A stretch of 64,000 nt of DNA from Meiothermus sp. (GTDB lineage Bacteria > Deinococcota > Deinococci > Deinococcales > Thermaceae). The position numbers and the translations under genes are program-made. The notes beneath the pieces were generated by a model. That model was not told where the DNA came from, did not search any database, and saw nothing but the letters and a program-made list of their open reading frames with translations. Shown in pieces: positions 2,772 to 10,371 of the stretch (its first letter is position 1; each line of letters starts with the position of its first letter). The stretch lies in assembly GCA_037440185.1 (NCBI GenBank), contig JBBIUP010000001.1, positions 17,729-81,728 on the forward strand, read 5' to 3'.

Positions 2772-4442
2772 ATGGTATTTGTTTTGGCAATCCTGGCCTA
2801 CCTGATTGGCTCGCTGCCGCTGGGCTACTGGGCGATACGCCGACTGACCGGGCAAGACCCGCGCCTGGCCTCAGCCTACAACCTGGGCCTCGAGAACACC
2901 CTCAAACTCCTGGGAACAGGCCCAGCCCTGCTGGCCTGGAGCCTGGACTTCCTCAAGGGTCTAACGGCAGTATGGATGGGTGGGCAGTTTGGGCTGTCCT
3001 GGGCAGTTGTTTTTGCACTTGTGGTCTACCTGGGGCATCTGTACCCTCCCCGGCTTTTTGCCGAAGGAGCGCTCTTGCGGGGGCGAGGGGCGGGGGTGTT
3101 GGCAGGAGTTGTCCTAGGCCTGCATCTGAGCGGGCTGCCCTACCTGCTTACCCTGGTGGTTTTGCTGGTAGCCGGTGTGGGCCTGTTCTTGAGCCGCTAT
3201 GGCTCGCTGGCCGCCATGTATATTCCAGCCACGCTGGCACTGTTGCTTACATTTGAACCCATTTCGGGTTGGGCCAAGCTGGCGGCCTGGGTTTTGCTGT
3301 TTGTGACGTTGTGGCGCTACAAGGAAAATATTGGGCGGATGCTGGAAGGCACCGAGCCTCGCCTGGGTGAACCTTTACCCCTTCCATCCGATAAACAGGT
3401 GGTGTGTGCCTTCATGATCCACCCCCTCACCATCGCCGATCTCTTCCAAAGCCCCCGTTTCCGTTGGGCTAAACCGCTGGTGAACCGGGGGCTAATCTCC
3501 CAAAGTCTGGTGGAAAACTTCGCCGCGGCCATCCGGCCCATGAAGATAGGGGAATTACGGGGGGTCAAGACCCACGATGGTCGTGAGATTCGCTGTCATC
3601 TGCTCTCGGCACCGTTGCTGCCCCATCAGATCAGCAGCAAGCCCGAACTCGCCACCCAGCGGGCCATCCAGGGAGCGCGGCTGGCCAAAGAATTGGGCTG
3701 CACGGTGGTGGGGCTGGGAGCCTTCTGGAGCGTGGTGGGCGAGAAAGGCCGCATCGTGCAGGAGGCCGTGCCGGATATCGAAGTCACCAATGGCGGAGCC
3801 TACACCGCCGGAACCGTCAAGGCCGCCATTCCCGGTATCCTGGCCCACTTCGAGCAGTCCGGGCTCAAGCTCAAAGACGCAACGGCCGCGGTGGTAGGGG
3901 CCAACGGCGTGGTGGCCTTTGGCATTGCCCGGCAGATTGCGCCTTTGGTTGGAAAGTTGATTCTGGTGGGGCGCAACATGGAGCGCCTGGAGAAGAGCGC
4001 CACCACCCTTAGGCAAAACTTGGAACGCAAGGGGCAGCCCGTGCCGCAGGTCGTGATCACCCTCGAAATGCCCGCCATCCGCGAGGCCGACCTGATCTTC
4101 ACCGCCACCTCCGACCCCCAACCGGTCATCTTCCCCCAGCACGTCAAGCCCGGTGCGTGGATCTACGACGAGGGCGTGCCGCCCGACGTGGACGAGTCGG
4201 TGAAGGGCGTACAGGGCGTTCGGGTGATCCCCGGCGGGGTGGTGCGGCCTCCGGGGGCCATGACCGGCAACATCAACCTGCACTTCGGCGAGGGGGCGGT
4301 GCCAGCGTGCCTGGCCGAGACCATGATCCTGGCTGCCGAAAAAGCGTATGAACGCAAGAGTCTGGGCGGCGAGACCAAGAGCGAGAACATCCAGTTCTTC
4401 GTCGAACGGGCTGAAGCACTGGGGTTCAGGGTGGTGGATTGA
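2772..4442 (+). CDS. Fusion of a PlsY-like membrane acyltransferase domain and an acyl-ACP reductase-like NAD(P)-binding domain (COG5322-like)
   Basis: N-term YLIGSLP, LDFLKG, GHLYP, ENIGRMLEGTE (PlsY fold). C-term AFMIHPL, GLGAFWS, TNGGAYT, AVVGANG, GGVV, PACLAETM (AAR-like, catalytic Cys kept). Confidence 0.8.
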   Translation: MVFVLAILAYLIGSLPLGYWAIRRLTGQDPRLASAYNLGLENTLKLLGTGPALLAWSLDFLKGLTAVWMGGQFGLSWAVVFALVVYLGHLYPPRLFAEGALLRGRGAGVLAGVVLGLHLSGLPYLLTLVVLLVAGVGLFLSRYGSLAAMYIPATLALLLTFEPISGWAKLAAWVLLFVTLWRYKENIGRMLEGTEPRLGEPLPLPSDKQVVCAFMIHPLTIADLFQSPRFRWAKPLVNRGLISQSLVENFAAAIRPMKIGELRGVKTHDGREIRCHLLSAPLLPHQISSKPELATQRAIQGARLAKELGCTVVGLGAFWSVVGEKGRIVQEAVPDIEVTNGGAYTAGTVKAAIPGILAHFEQSGLKLKDATAAVVGANGVVAFGIARQIAPLVGKLILVGRNMERLEKSATTLRQNLERKGQPVPQVVITLEMPAIREADLIFTATSDPQPVIFPQHVKPGAWIYDEGVPPDVDESVKGVQGVRVIPGGVVRPPGAMTGNINLHFGEGAVPACLAETMILAAEKAYERKSLGGETKSENIQFFVERAEALGFRVVD

Positions 4443-4444
4443 AG

Positions 4445-5197
4445 CTACTCGTGGCCCAGGAGGCCCCGCTTTCTAGCCGCTACATCGGCGCTTTGGAATA
4501 GAAATACCCCCAGGCCATAGACGGCCACTGTTCCCAGCGCCAGAAGTGCCCATCTGAACACTTCAACCGTACCACCCAGAAGTGTCTCTCTGATGACGCT
4601 TGCCCCCAGCACCAGTGGGAACCACTCGAGCAGTGGCAACTCGACTATCACCGCCGGAAAAACCATCAGTTGAACCAGCACGAAAATGTTGTTGACATCC
4701 TTGAAGAGCAACATTAAGGCACCAAACGCAAGCCCCAGGCCCAGTGCAGCAATCAAGAAGAGGACAAACGCCGGGATCACCTGCCAACTTAGCGTGTAAC
4801 TGATTTGGGTAATGTAGGCCAGTACAAAAAATAGCAGTCCAAACTGTACAAGGTTTAACCAGAATCGGGCGAGGGTCTGTACGACAAAAAATGCGGTCAA
4901 GCCCTGCCCCGACAAGACCATGTTCTCGAGGGTACCGGATTTGGCTTCTTTGCTTACCTGCGTGGCTGGATTGCTCATGATGCCAAGAGCGACCAGCCCC
5001 AGCAGATACCCAACCAGCAGCCGGGTAAGCTGGGCTTGGTTAGCAGTTGTGACCCCCGCAAGGTTGGCAAAACCCAGCAGCAAGTAAAAGATCAAGCCAA
5101 TAAGTATTAGCCCGAGCGCGAATTGGAGCGGGTAGCGCACCAGCTCGAGCCAGGCTCGCATAAACTCGGCCCAGATCAGGTTAGCCAGCCGGTGCAT
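4445..5197 (-). CDS. ABC-2 type exporter permease
   Basis: About 6 TM segments, KEAKSGTLENMVLS motif, C-terminal ARKRGLLG; AGGAG RBS before ATG 5197. Confidence 0.85.
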   Translation of the reverse strand: MHRLANLIWAEFMRAWLELVRYPLQFALGLILIGLIFYLLLGFANLAGVTTANQAQLTRLLVGYLLGLVALGIMSNPATQVSKEAKSGTLENMVLSGQGLTAFFVVQTLARFWLNLVQFGLLFFVLAYITQISYTLSWQVIPAFVLFLIAALGLGLAFGALMLLFKDVNNIFVLVQLMVFPAVIVELPLLEWFPLVLGASVIRETLLGGTVEVFRWALLALGTVAVYGLGVFLFQSADVAARKRGLLGHE

Positions 5198-6107
5198 GTT
5201 GCGACTCCTTTTTGGGGGCATAGGCTCTAAAGACCTCGGCCAGCTCCACTTCCCGCTTCTCGATGCCCTTGATCGGCCGGGGGCGCAGCAGGTTCATCAG
5301 CTCGTAAATTTGATCGGGGTTGTCCAGGGTGACTTCGAGCACGGTGCCCGACTCAGCCCACCTATTCTGGAATGGCAAATCCGGCAGTGTAGTGGGCTCT
5401 CGGAAAGTAATCCGATAACTTTGCACGGCAAACCTCTCCAAAAGCTCTTGTTTGGGTTTGTCCACAGCAATAATCCCATCGGCCAGGATAGCCACCCGCG
5501 TGCTCAGCCGAGCAGCCACCTCCATCTGATGGGTGGTCAGGAGAATGCCCTTACCACCCTTTGTCATCGCCAGGATTTGCTCCTCGAGCACCTCTGCCGC
5601 GTCAATGTCCAGACCCAGGGTAGGCTCATCCAGCAGGACGAACGGTGGGTCGTGGGCGATTGCAAGAGCAAAGGCCATCTTTGAAATCATGCCCTTGGAA
5701 AGGGTTTGGGTTGGTGCGTTCCGCTTCTCCCACAGACCCAGCAACTCCAAAAGGTACTTGGCCCGCTCGCCCGCCACCTTACCGGTCATACCCCGGACGA
5801 TGCAGGTATAGCGCAAGTTCTCGAGAGGTGTAAGTCGCGGATACAAGCCTCGGTTGGTGTCAATGAGTGCTCCCATCTGCGCCATGTACTCGCGTTGCCC
5901 AACCATGAATCCATTGATCACAACTGTACCTGCATCTGGAAGTACCAGACCGCAAATAGTACGTATGGTGGTGGTTTTCCCACTGCCGTTGCGCCCCAGA
6001 AGCGCCACGATCTCCCCCGTCTGCACCTGCAAGGAAACGTCGGTGAGCACCTTTACCACGTTGCTGCGGGAGCGATAGGTTTTTTGAATTGAATCTATTC
6101 TCAGCAT
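5181..6107 (-). CDS. ABC exporter ATP-binding subunit
   Basis: Walker A GRNGSGKT, signature LSKGM, Walker B LLDEPT; likely start ATG 6107 after AGGA. Confidence 0.9.
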   Translation of the reverse strand: MLRIDSIQKTYRSRSNVVKVLTDVSLQVQTGEIVALLGRNGSGKTTTIRTICGLVLPDAGTVVINGFMVGQREYMAQMGALIDTNRGLYPRLTPLENLRYTCIVRGMTGKVAGERAKYLLELLGLWEKRNAPTQTLSKGMISKMAFALAIAHDPPFVLLDEPTLGLDIDAAEVLEEQILAMTKGGKGILLTTHQMEVAARLSTRVAILADGIIAVDKPKQELLERFAVQSYRITFREPTTLPDLPFQNRWAESGTVLEVTLDNPDQIYELMNLLRPRPIKGIEKREVELAEVFRAYAPKKESQHAPAG

Positions 6108-6134
6108 TTGTTTTCCTGCCCGATCAGATTTTAT

Positions 6135-6161
6135 CGGTGTGGGGATATTCACCCCACACCG
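6135..6161. terminator. Perfect 10-bp hairpin between the peptide ORFs and the ABC ATPase (stabiliser or attenuator)
   Basis: CGGTGTGGGG-ATATTCA-CCCCACACCG; no U-tract follows on the minus strand. Confidence 0.6.
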
Positions 6162-6168
6162 TTGCTGT

Positions 6169-6234
6169 CTAGCACCATCCAAAGAAGCAAAAGATATGAT
6201 CCAACAAAGCTACAATATACTCACGAGTAATCAC
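6169..6234 (-). CDS. Putative 21-aa amphipathic peptide MITREYIVALLDHIFCFFGWC
   Basis: GGAGG RBS 4 nt before GTG; ends C-x4-C-stop. Alternative in-frame ATG at 6258 gives 29 aa. Confidence 0.6.
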   Translation of the reverse strand: MITREYIVALLDHIFCFFGWC

Positions 6235-6278
6235 ATAACCTCCATTGAATTTCCACATCAGACCAAAGGTTTAGCCAT

Positions 6279-6341
6279 CTAGCATCCCTGGGTTACCGCG
6301 CAGATAATTTCCGCAATTATACGAATAATAGCATCACGCAA
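6279..6341 (-). CDS. Putative 20-aa amphipathic peptide MRDAIIRIIAEIICAVTQGC
   Basis: Strong SD AAGGGGGTGA 7 nt before TTG; ends C-x5-C-stop. Confidence 0.6.
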   Translation of the reverse strand: MRDAIIRIIAEIICAVTQGC

Positions 6342-6377
6342 ACTGCATTCACCCCCTTTCTGAGGTACCTCGAGGGG

Positions 6378-6404
6378 ATATTAGCATCTTATTTTTTTTG
6401 TCAA
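6378..6404 (-). promoter_or_regulatory. Sigma-A-like promoter for the peptide/ABC operon
   Basis: TTGACA (6404-6399), short 15-nt spacer, extended -10 TGcTAATAT (6386-6378). Confidence 0.55.
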
Positions 6405-6461: not shown

Positions 6462-7130
6462 GTGTCCACTCCACCATTGCTCCTGCTATCTCCCACCCGC
6501 CTCGAGGCTCCCTTCCTCAAAGGCCAGAAGTTCGATTTTCACGGACGCGCGGGGCTGCGCGGGGCGGGCTGGGTCTGGCTCGAGTGCGGCATCGGCAAGG
6601 TCAACACCGCCGACACCCTGGCCGCTTTCGTCCAGCGGCGCAGGTTCGAGCGGGTGCTGCTCTTTGGCATTGCGGGGGCCTATGCCGACTCGGGCTTGCA
6701 GATAGGCGATTGCGCCCTGGCCGAGCGGGAGATTCAGGCCGACCTGGGGGTGCGGGATGGGGGCCTGAAGGGCCTGGGCTTCCCCAGCCTGGTGGTGGCC
6801 TCCAAGCCCTACCACAACCGCTTTCCGCTGGACAAAGCTTTTACAGACGAACTTAAGAGCAAACTGGGCCTGCCCGGCAAACAGTTCCTGACCCGCGACC
6901 TGGTCTCGGAGAACCCCAGCGAGGCCCGCCAGCTCGCGCGTAAATGGGAGGCCGACCTCGAGAACATGGAAGGCGCAGCCTTTGCCCAGACCTGCCTTTG
7001 GCTGGGGCTTGCCGGGGCCGAACTGCGCTCGATTTCAAACACCGCAGGCATCCGCGACAAGTCCCAGTGGCGCATCAAACAAGCCGTGGAGAGCCTCGAG
7101 TACCACATTTTGCGTATTATCGGATCATGA
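6462..7130 (+). CDS. mqnB: Futalosine hydrolase (menaquinone futalosine pathway)
   Basis: PNP/MTAN fold motifs GIGKVN, FGIAGAY, ENMEGAA, RSISN, W-x-IKQA; leaderless GTG after TAAGAT. Confidence 0.8.
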   Translation: MSTPPLLLLSPTRLEAPFLKGQKFDFHGRAGLRGAGWVWLECGIGKVNTADTLAAFVQRRRFERVLLFGIAGAYADSGLQIGDCALAEREIQADLGVRDGGLKGLGFPSLVVASKPYHNRFPLDKAFTDELKSKLGLPGKQFLTRDLVSENPSEARQLARKWEADLENMEGAAFAQTCLWLGLAGAELRSISNTAGIRDKSQWRIKQAVESLEYHILRIIGS

Positions 7131-8559: not shown

Positions 8560-10371
8560 CTACAACCGTCGCTGCAAGAAATCCGCTAGCAGCCGGTAGG
8601 TGCGGATCTTGCCCTGGATGTCGCCGCCGGGGCCATGCCCTTCATCGCCGAATTCGTGGTATTCGAAGTCTTCACCCTCTTTCTTGCCCAGTTGCAGCAA
8701 TTTGTCGCGGAAGATACGGGCCTGGCTGATGGGGCAGCGGGGGTCGTTAACGCCGTGGACGATCATGATCTTGGCTTTGAGCTGGTGGGCGAACTCGATG
8801 GCGCTGCGGTCGCGCCAGAGGGCATGATCCTTCTCGGGGTCGCCCATTTGCGAGCGGAAGTAGTACTTGAAATGCTCCATGTCTTCTTCATAGAGCTTGT
8901 GCAGATCGGTGATGCCCACCCAGGGTACCCCCACCTTGAACACATCAGGCTTCTTGGTGACGGCAATGAAGCTCATGAAGCCCCCAAACGAACCCCCAAA
9001 AATGCCAATGCGTTCAGGGTCTACATAAGGCAGGGCTCTGAGATAGCTAGCTCCGGCTACCACATCTTCCAGGTCGCCCCCGCCCCAGTCTTTGAGGTTA
9101 AGGTCGCGCCATTCCACCCCGTAGCCAGTCGAACCCCGAATATTGGGCTGCAGAATCACATACCCCTGATCCACCAGGAACTGTGCGAACAGGTCGAAGC
9201 TCCGAAAAAACTGTGCAGTGGGCCCACCATGGACGATCACCACCGCAGGCAGCCTGGCCCCCGGCGCGATGTCCTTGGGTTTGTAGAGGAGGGCGGGCAC
9301 TTTGTGTCCATCGTAGCTCTGGTACCAGATATGCTCGTCTTCCACAAATACCGAGGGGTCAATCGAGCCGTACTCGGCAGCCAACAACACTTCATAGGTA
9401 TCACTAGCCAAGTCGTATAAAATTAACTCGGGACGACGGGTGGCGGAGGTGAGCAACACCAAAAGTTTGCTGTCACCCAGCACAAAACTGCTGCCTGCCG
9501 CGATACCCTCGGGCAGTTTCAGCTCTCTGGCTTGTCCAGTTTCGACATGGTAGAGCACCGGCATGATGGCCGAGTGGCGGTTGCGGATCACTGCCAGCCA
9601 CTCGCCATTTTTGGAGAAGCTGGCCGCGTACTCCTCGGTGTCGCTTTGCTGTGGGCTGAACCAGCGGATCTCGCCGCTGTCGAGGTGCAAAATTCCAGCT
9701 CGGTTGCTACCCGAAACATCGGAAGTGAAGGCCACACGTTTTCCATCCGGGTGCCAGTCGGCCACATTGTCCTGCGAACCTTCCTCGAGCGCGAGGATTT
9801 TGCGCATCTCTGTGCCATCGTCGCGCACCAGATAGCTATCCTGGTTTTTCAGGTTGGGTAATTCATTCGAGATAAAAGCCAGCCACTTGCCATCGGGGCT
9901 CCAGCCGCTCGCAAAAGCCGGGGCTTTGAAATGGGTCAGTTGTTTCCACTCGTGGGTTTCGTGCCTCAGGTCGAGCACAAACACGTTCATCTGTCCAGCC
10001 CGGTTGCTCATGACAGCCATGCGGGTGTTGTCGGGGTGTACCTGACCTGCATATTCCTGTGTTTTGGAACTGTCGTCCATCTGCACCACGCTGGCAGAGG
10101 CTAGGTGCAGCTTGAAGAGATTGTTTTGTTCATCGCCGTCTTTATCTTTGGCAAAGATGATCTCGGCGTCGTCCCTGGTCCAGACAAAGCCCGCCCGCAA
10201 CTGGCGCGGGGCCTGTCCGTCGGTAAGCTTTTGCACCTCGCGGGTTTCCAAGTCCATCGTGTACAGCTCGTATCGCCCGGTTTTGTCCCAGTAAAAAGCA
10301 ATTTTCTGGCCGTCCCAACTGGGCGTGACGGCGGCAAAGCTGGGGAGTTTAGCGAGTTCCTCTAAGTTCAT
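8560..10371 (-). CDS. S9 family (acylaminoacyl/prolyl oligo-) peptidase with beta-propeller
   Basis: HGGP, NIRGSTGYG, GGSFGG nucleophile, DPRC, DEGH. Confidence 0.92.
   Translation of the reverse strand: MNLEELAKLPSFAAVTPSWDGQKIAFYWDKTGRYELYTMDLETREVQKLTDGQAPRQLRAGFVWTRDDAEIIFAKDKDGDEQNNLFKLHLASASVVQMDDSSKTQEYAGQVHPDNTRMAVMSNRAGQMNVFVLDLRHETHEWKQLTHFKAPAFASGWSPDGKWLAFISNELPNLKNQDSYLVRDDGTEMRKILALEEGSQDNVADWHPDGKRVAFTSDVSGSNRAGILHLDSGEIRWFSPQQSDTEEYAASFSKNGEWLAVIRNRHSAIMPVLYHVETGQARELKLPEGIAAGSSFVLGDSKLLVLLTSATRRPELILYDLASDTYEVLLAAEYGSIDPSVFVEDEHIWYQSYDGHKVPALLYKPKDIAPGARLPAVVIVHGGPTAQFFRSFDLFAQFLVDQGYVILQPNIRGSTGYGVEWRDLNLKDWGGGDLEDVVAGASYLRALPYVDPERIGIFGGSFGGFMSFIAVTKKPDVFKVGVPWVGITDLHKLYEEDMEHFKYYFRSQMGDPEKDHALWRDRSAIEFAHQLKAKIMIVHGVNDPRCPISQARIFRDKLLQLGKKEGEDFEYHEFGDEGHGPGGDIQGKIRTYRLLADFLQRRL

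Follow-up and report, generated by a model that had tools for sequence, protein, structure and literature searches.

Putative leaderless cysteine-pair peptides encoded with a probable ABC-2 exporter in Meiothermus

We describe a small minus-strand operon in a 64,000-nt stretch of the genome of Meiothermus sp. (GenBank assembly GCA_037440185.1, contig JBBIUP010000001.1, positions 17,729 to 81,728; hereafter the window), in which two tiny open reading frames (ORFs), each led by its own Shine–Dalgarno (SD) sequence and encoding a peptide with a C-terminal cysteine pair, precede genes for an ATP-binding cassette (ABC) ATPase and an ABC-2 permease. Judged by the pattern of substitution among relatives, both ORFs are real genes under protein-level selection. 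We put a probability of just under 0.6 on the reading that they encode leaderless, neutral-to-anionic, probably disulfide-looped peptides that would be extruded in bulk by their own type V pump and would resemble the staphylococcal phenol-soluble modulins (PSMs) in action; on our best reading of the comparisons below, the peptides would work like PSMs while standing outside the PSM family. The operon, which occurs in Meiothermus from hot springs and in some of its kin, is undescribed in the literature searched, and gene callers miss its peptide genes.

Peptide genes recur upstream of related transporters and evolve as proteins

An earlier note, made from the window's sequence alone, had read this locus as an export system for two leaderless peptides and had named the recurrence of similar small ORFs upstream of homologous exporters as its test. 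A permease profile run over 364 Deinococcota genomes (the unpublished genome G327 enters only tallies over all 364) separated a close clade, present in 16 genomes at 257–388 bits, from the next score of 153 bits; named records within the clade are Meiothermus species and metagenome-assembled genomes of Deinococcales. SD-led Cys-pair ORFs lie ahead of the ATPase in 14 of the 16, with selection of the coding type and no orphan copies, so the test came out in favour of the note. The cassette genomes comprise all 11 of the window's family, drawn from three genera, and three of another family (G044, G183 and G184), whose ATPase is about 48% and permease 32–36% identical and whose peptide sequences differ. 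Most cassettes hold two peptide genes, four hold three (G012, G016, G022 and G183) and that of G044 holds four, with loops that vary, which does away with the idea of a fixed two-peptide system. Among five metagenome loci covering the region, four are intact; in the fifth, L062, both peptides are broken. At 70 loci of lower-scoring, more distant paralogues (70 of 134 listed; 12 further loci were dropped, with no ATPase in view) there was no tandem cassette, and a single Cys ORF with a weak SD occurred at two. Because ORF extraction demanded a Cys pair, the universality of the pair comes partly from that selection; when strong-SD ORFs were listed without the Cys filter, the extras were all decayed or frameshifted.

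Variation in the peptide genes falls mostly at third codon positions. The proportion of synonymous differences (pS) is 0.73 and that of non-synonymous differences (pN) 0.17 for the A genes (n = 10), against 0.84 and 0.16 for the B genes (n = 13); synonymous sites are near saturation, so the encoded peptides are under selection, with the caveat that kin in these sets are not independent. Start codons vary among ATG, GTG and TTG across orthologues, with SD and stop retained. A profile built from these same peptides and run against the 364 whole genomes gave 30 matches, 29 of them at the transporter locus and one, weak and partial, elsewhere; the window's own genome (2.95 Mb) contains only 15 other SD-led ORFs of 17–23 codons with the same Cys pattern.

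None of ten peptides looked up was present in a 15-billion-protein collection, and none of 15 (of 21, the rest being under 20 aa) matched Pfam or NCBIfam models, PSM models included, a comparison of low power on 20-mers. A locus search with the permease as a single sequence returned nothing, and one with an alignment returned Deinococcota only (8 genome loci and 6 metagenome loci). Outside Deinococcota, no tandem Cys-pair cassette appeared in the screened gaps of 13 plasmid regions representing 12 distinct loci, the nearer relatives (P0035 onward) having no DNA context. We found no account of this operon in the open-access literature, subscription journals and supplements lying outside the search. 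Among contigs from four RNA runs, one of 276 nt (X3) spans the first two peptide genes of locus L035 (6082–6357), and those of X1 cover the whole region as evenly as DNA would; such contigs show neither level nor strand, and we draw nothing from them.

Layout of the operon and properties of the peptides

The two SD-led ORFs, the 10-bp hairpin, the ATPase and the permease all lie where the earlier note had placed them (Table 1), in an islet that is AT-rich as it had said (GC content 0.415 over positions 6201–6400, which hold the peptide genes, against 0.53–0.70 in the surroundings). As described there, the peptides are about 20 aa long and both genes end in TGC TAG, so that the second Cys is the last residue; ORF B has an in-frame ATG eight codons upstream, without an SD. 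The ATPase matches ABC_tran, and its best NCBIfam match, the DrrA subfamily, is below cut-off, as is the permease match to ABC2_membrane_3 (E = 1.5e-6). No modifying enzyme is encoded within the operon, in line with the earlier note; an S9 peptidase gene (8560–10371) lies about 2 kb away, outside the operon.

Table 1. Features of the peptide–transporter operon, in positions of the 64,000-nt window
Feature	Position	Strand	Basis or conservation
-35-like hexamer TTGACA	6399..6404	-	TTGAC/TTGAT-like hexamer at the same position in relatives
A8 run within promoter spacer	6392..6399	-	candidate slipped-strand switch; relatives have 7-12 nt of A or of T
-10-like hexamer TAATAT with TG-n extension	6378..6383	-	TAnnnT/A kept 4-7 nt ahead of palindrome, 13 matched loci
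10-bp palindrome, predicted transcript start	6362..6371	-	sequence differs in relatives, self-complementarity kept
Shine–Dalgarno, peptide A	6349..6358	-	SD retained in orthologues
Peptide A gene, 20 aa, TTG start, C-terminal C-x5-C	6279..6341	-	10 orthologues, pS 0.73, pN 0.17
Shine–Dalgarno GGAGGT, peptide B	6238..6243	-	sequence reading
Peptide B gene, 21 aa, GTG start, C-terminal C-x4-C	6169..6234	-	13 orthologues, pS 0.84, pN 0.16
10-bp hairpin lacking a U-tail, after last peptide gene and ahead of ATPase	6135..6161	-	position kept, sequence unrelated in relatives
ABC ATPase, 308 aa, DrrA-like group	5181..6107	-	ABC_tran match
ABC-2 / type V permease, 250 aa	4445..5197	-	ABC2_membrane_3 below cut-off; structure model

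Across the clade, 33 distinct peptides are 17–22 aa long, carry a net charge of 0 to −2 without exception (33/33) and have a grand average of hydropathy (GRAVY) of 0.64–1.95, about 1.2; the window pair, at 0 and −1, bears the charges that had been given for it. The Cys loop encloses 4, 5, 6 or 9 residues, with the last Cys at the C-terminus or at most two residues from it, and inspection of the sequences revealed no leader motif; the forms with C-x9-C hint at dimers. In the A and B types a basic N-terminus leads into a hydrophobic stretch, and an Asp or Glu stands 10–12 residues before the end. The amphipathic-helix periodicity that the earlier note had attributed to the window pair is weaker than it had stated: with a cut-off of p < 0.05, neither peptide beats its shuffles, whether over the best 11-mer (p = 0.07 and 0.33) or from the N-terminus to the first Cys (p = 0.26 and 0.72). 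What marks the peptides is strong hydrophobicity, broken by a thin polar stripe; their amphipathicity is modest.

The pump has a type V fold and relatives in peptide natural-product regions

The structure model of the permease (pLDDT, the model's confidence score, 86.8) has as its top 18 structural matches at Z ≥ 8 members of the type V ABC fold group exclusively, the best being KpsM, Wzm and TarG (Z 16.5–19.0). The type V membrane fold together with a separate ATPase corresponds to the make-up of type V (ABC-2) transporters. PmtD, the permease of the PSM exporter PmtCD, was absent from the permease profile matches, and PmtC was absent among 35 matches at E ≤ 1e-25. As modelled, the pump and the PSM exporter belong to one fold class, which does not make them orthologues; the Meiothermus pump consists of one ATPase and one permease, and PmtD is 6–15% identical and not the nearest fold.

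The wider ABC-2 permease family, which ends in G-x-L-G-H-[EY], had 317 representatives at E ≤ 1e-30, with cyanobacteria, haloarchaea and Firmicutes among them. Distant relatives on plasmids lie in peptide natural-product regions, beside non-ribosomal peptide synthetase (NRPS) genes (L157 and L195) and LanM (L161) and with halocin H4 nearby (L159); the region of L160 holds peptidases and a methyltransferase, and a Deinococcota paralogue (L072) follows a LanC gene. Because family members adjoin peptide natural-product genes, peptide export is, by association, the likeliest role of the pump. The earlier note's dedicated peptide exporter is thus backed by distant relatives in NRPS, lanthipeptide, radical S-adenosylmethionine (SAM) and halocin regions; the permease is not specially close to PmtD. 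The clade differs from the wider family, with which it shares such neighbourhoods of peptide genes (NRPS, LanM, LanC, radical-SAM and halocin), in that its peptides come without a modifying enzyme and that Cys-pair cassettes occur in no other clade examined.

Several of these relatives adjoin other unannotated genes. On a Bacillus cereus plasmid (CP128120.1; L192:1793-2030), a pair of tandem precursor genes (33 aa each) and a hairpin stand ahead of genes for a radical-SAM/SPASM enzyme and for a related pump of the ABC type, likely a locus for a ribosomally synthesised and post-translationally modified peptide. On a Thermus thermophilus plasmid (NZ_AP024931.1; L158:2669-3955), an ORF of 85 aa, a probable precursor with a Ser/Tyr-repeat core and led by a perfect SD, precedes a 326-aa protein without a Pfam match and a related pump. 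In five genomes of another family (L017, L025, L081, L083 and L084), tandem genes, near-identical and two to three or more in number, encode acidic peptides of 42–51 aa ahead of a paralogous pump, and at L036:3815-6577 an M16 peptidase follows; the acidic-peptide loci look like a second unannotated peptide system. SD-led ORFs for basic, helical peptides of 38–57 aa lie directly upstream of another paralogous ATPase (L087, L093, L094, L095 and L097).

A proposed mode of action and its alternatives

We propose that one transcript from the upstream promoter would carry peptides and pump, that the peptides would be made without a leader and in excess over the transporter, and that the hairpin would stabilise or terminate the peptide part of the message, leaving more peptide than pump. 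The peptides would first partition into the inner membrane and then enter the pump laterally, a route proposed for PmtCD, and the periplasmic Dsb system would oxidise the Cys pair into a C-terminal disulfide loop; DsbB is present in all five carriers tested. The transporter may double as self-protection, as PmtCD, a type V exporter of PSMs of 20–26 residues, gives its producer immunity in the sections of PMC12623860 drawn on here. Outside the cell, the peptides would act on membranes or surfaces, and the weakest step is their final use, which may be as a surfactant for spreading or biofilm shaping or in antagonism of neighbours.

A number of observations weigh against this proposal. Two of the 16 close-clade genomes, G040 and G056, have no peptides upstream of the transporter, and the distant relatives L194, L196, L197 and L198 have no peptide context. 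In the structural comparison PmtD (Z 11.1, 6% identity) ranks below Wzm, KpsM and TarG. Helical amphipathicity reaches p < 0.05 against shuffles in only 6 of the 33 peptides, the window pair not among them, and the want of a positive net charge argues against classic antibacterial killing. No DsbB was found in the window's own genome, which is 78% complete; no separate immunity gene was seen, and the Meiothermus operons contain no outer-membrane channel that would take the peptides beyond the periplasm. Taken as a whole, the earlier note's interpretation is partly supported, with a variable peptide number, modest amphipathicity and no special closeness to PmtD, and with bacteriocin, surfactant and signal as candidate roles.

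Alternatively, the peptides may be pheromone precursors akin to the short hydrophobic peptides (SHPs) of streptococcal type, which a membrane protease would cleave close to the acidic residue some ten positions before the end, the pump releasing a small disulfide ring. We consider this unlikely. The A and B types have the requisite basic N-terminus, hydrophobic middle and acidic residue 10–12 from the end, a two-component system diverges from the cassette in G044 and G183, and the covered sections of PMC7564271 describe mature SHPs as hydrophobic, 9–11 residues long, cut by Eep and exported by PptAB; the SHP/ComS systems (Eep, PptAB and Rgg/ComR) there share a short hydrophobic precursor and ABC export with our loci. 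They differ in that the Meiothermus loci have a Cys loop, several peptides each and no adjacent regulator (0 of 11 Meiothermus-family loci examined). The Rgg C-terminal domain (TIGR01716) was found in none of five carriers, with a positive Lactococcus control and other RRNPP types outside the search. As to thiolactone pheromones of the AgrD kind, the AgrB cyclase was found neither in the window's own genome (G000, 78% complete) nor in five near-complete carriers. Moreover, conservation of the N-terminal part equals that of the ring, the peptides of G044 lack the acidic residue in question, and several different peptides, strong SDs and a hairpin suggest bulk output.

Somewhat less probable again is that the peptides serve the transporter as small membrane subunits or as regulators, or that the ORFs are leaders tuning its expression, and that the pump carries some other cargo. 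Twenty hydrophobic residues (GRAVY about 1.2) are long enough to span a membrane, linkage to the pump is perfect, the nearest solved folds are glycan exporters, and two of the 16 clade members work without peptides. Variable gene number and free shuffling against the pump, however, misfit a fixed subunit; the hairpin, unlike an attenuator, comes after the final stop codon and clear of any ORF; and no glycan-synthesis genes are nearby.

We attach little weight to the possibility that the Cys pair remains reduced as a ligand for a metal or metalloid, the peptide being expelled or released by the pump as a chelator. Two invariant Cys with Asp, Glu or His close by, a neutral-to-anionic charge and TerC-family genes 2–5 kb off would suit it, but the Cys spacing ranges from 4 to 9, there is no metal-sensing regulator, and the operon is an insertion, its two flanking genes abutting in non-carriers, and therefore does not include the TerC neighbourhood. 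Slightly more remote still is a role as self-toxins of the type I kind, like Ibs and TisB, with the pump as detoxifier and dormancy or lysis of a sub-population as the outcome. Size, hydrophobicity, near-zero charge, frequent decay and a short, apparently weak promoter spacer in most genomes would fit; co-transcription with an exporter and an invariant Cys pair are atypical and, to our knowledge, not features of type I toxins, and no antisense RNA was seen, none having been looked for. Finally, the idea that the ORFs arise by chance in AT-rich intergenic DNA, to which their extreme shortness and absence from all gene catalogues checked might point, is refuted by their upstream recurrence, their selection (codon-position bias, pS about 4–5 times pN) and their linkage to the transporter locus, with SD, start, Cys pair, stop and tandem arrangement kept across three genera and a second family.

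Comparison with known peptide systems

PSMs of the alpha type and PmtCD, in the portion of PMC12623860 used here, resemble our system in their hydrophobic, helix-forming peptides of about 20 residues, several variants and a type V ABC exporter. The Meiothermus peptides differ from PSMs in their invariant C-terminal Cys pair, and in having their genes directly in the exporter operon; their length of 17–22 residues is compatible with the 20–26 of PSMs, and their host is a diderm thermophile of the Deinococcales, not Staphylococcus, with AgrB in none of six genomes. Multi-peptide leaderless bacteriocins (aureocin A70, garvicin KS and the cereucins) are likewise tandem, often unannotated and free of a modifying enzyme; the part of PMC6131525 consulted gives three to four tandem leaderless peptide genes and, in its table rows, charges of +2 to +8 and lengths of 26–51 aa. 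The present cassettes share with them tandem leaderless genes beside an ABC exporter (2–4 per cassette) and lack the net cationic charge: their peptides have 17–22 aa, a charge of 0 to −2 and a Cys pair, and no immunity gene was seen. The proposed system would work like both, but membership fails for the PSMs on host and agr, and for the leaderless bacteriocins on cationic charge.

Rana-box peptides are of animal origin, cationic and cut from prepropeptides, and ranatuerin-2 has a C-x4-C loop. The frog Rana box comprises a helix followed by a C-terminal C-x5-C loop, according to the excerpted text of PMC13149500. The A-type peptides share this C-x5-C, the B type having C-x4-C and others loops of 6 or 9; they are products of bacterial, SD-led 20-codon genes, not of amphibian prepropeptides, and by our analysis the resemblance is one of layout only, convergent at most.

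If the proposal is true, the PSM mode, in which a type V pump serves tiny, unmodified peptides that act on membranes, would extend from staphylococci to a distant diderm phylum and would gain a disulfide loop hitherto familiar from animal peptides. The transporter clade offers a handle for mining peptide genes of under 25 codons that are hidden from standard annotation; enzyme-free peptides of 17–22 residues from thermophiles are directly synthesisable; and a two-gene pump with natural substrate variants makes a simple model for type V peptide extrusion. Only tentatively, and with more doubt than confidence, do we suggest a new class of secreted peptide that would combine leaderless, enzyme-free ~20-mers, a Rana-box-like disulfide loop, swapped cassettes, an own type V pump in diderm thermophiles and promoter-slippage switching in a subpopulation.

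Promoter, palindrome and hairpin

The TTGACA and TAATAT hexamers of the promoter in the earlier note are present; their spacer is 15 nt, and the pair was not listed by a consensus scan for spacers of 16–18 nt. Among 13 matched loci the −35/−10 spacer is 14–16 nt in ten, 18–19 nt in two and 8 nt in the broken L062. Meiothermus taiwanensis DSM 14542 (L041), a cultured carrier, has an A11 run and an 18-nt spacer, and its operon is predicted to be expressed. An A or T run of 7–12 follows the −35 hexamer in 14 of 15 Meiothermus-family loci spanning the region; A/T runs of at least 8 number only 45 in the window's own genome. Slipped-strand promoter switches are built in this way, and it is possible that slippage of the homopolymer run turns the operon on and off, a suggestion that is among the weakest we make. 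No within-species variants in run length were found in the contigs compared, the second family (G044, G183 and G184) has no promoter A/T run, and the runs could instead serve in DNA bending. Some strains carry a 29-nt tandem duplication of the −35/A-run/−10 segment (L065; L035:6038 in runs X1 and X19). In the palindrome downstream, the kept self-complementarity includes the centre, and candidate roles are a 5′ hairpin, an operator or a dimer site.

The hairpin ahead of the ATPase has ten perfect pairs and a 7-nt loop (z = −3.4; none of 200 shuffles as stable). Nearly all loci have a hairpin behind their last peptide gene, with unrelated sequences and stems of 10–15 perfect pairs in 14 of 18 and of 6–7 in the other four, against mostly 4–8 in coding controls.

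Evolution and genomic neighbourhood

The locus is mosaic and patchy, occurring in 10 of 67 other genomes of the window's family. Its flanks are a phosphorylase-family gene (6462–7130), presumably MqnB, and a PlsY-domain fusion gene (2772–4442). Around the first of these, 30 loci were compared, 9 of them carriers; in most non-carriers, including all eight loci of genus g5, no more than about 250 nt separates the flanking genes, and because they nearly abut there, the operon is an insert at this site. Between G000 and G009 the MqnB-like neighbour is 95% and the permease 61% identical, and between G000 and G028 the values are 81% and 86%. Such shuffling of peptides and pump between lineages, with gene number and loop varying, fits a broad-specificity pump and not a fixed partner; the permease tree is poorly resolved within the Meiothermus clade, and we claim no direction of transfer.

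Decay is frequent: peptide A is frameshifted in G028, the permease of G008 has a stop, the ATPase of G009 is frameshifted, and the first ORF is dead in G016 and G022. Such frameshifts, stops and deletions fit a costly, dispensable trait, and some of the apparent decay may be assembly error. At a contig end in G025 (L137), the ATPase start comes straight after the neighbour gene, without promoter or peptides, and the genome gave no permease match.

In the second family, the cassette stands beside a divergent two-component system in G044 and G183 (L031:335-10798 and L067), and in G044 two outer-membrane efflux genes, an adaptor and a MacB pump directly follow it, a possible outer-membrane route. 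In the window, the PlsY (glycerol-3-phosphate acyltransferase) domain of the gene at 2772–4442 is fused to a shikimate-dehydrogenase-like NAD(P)-binding domain, a fusion conserved across the family. Further along, outside the inserted operon, two TerC-family-like membrane genes, the first confirmed by Pfam, flank a methyltransferase-like ORF (360–1055, 1062–1607 and 1863–2612).

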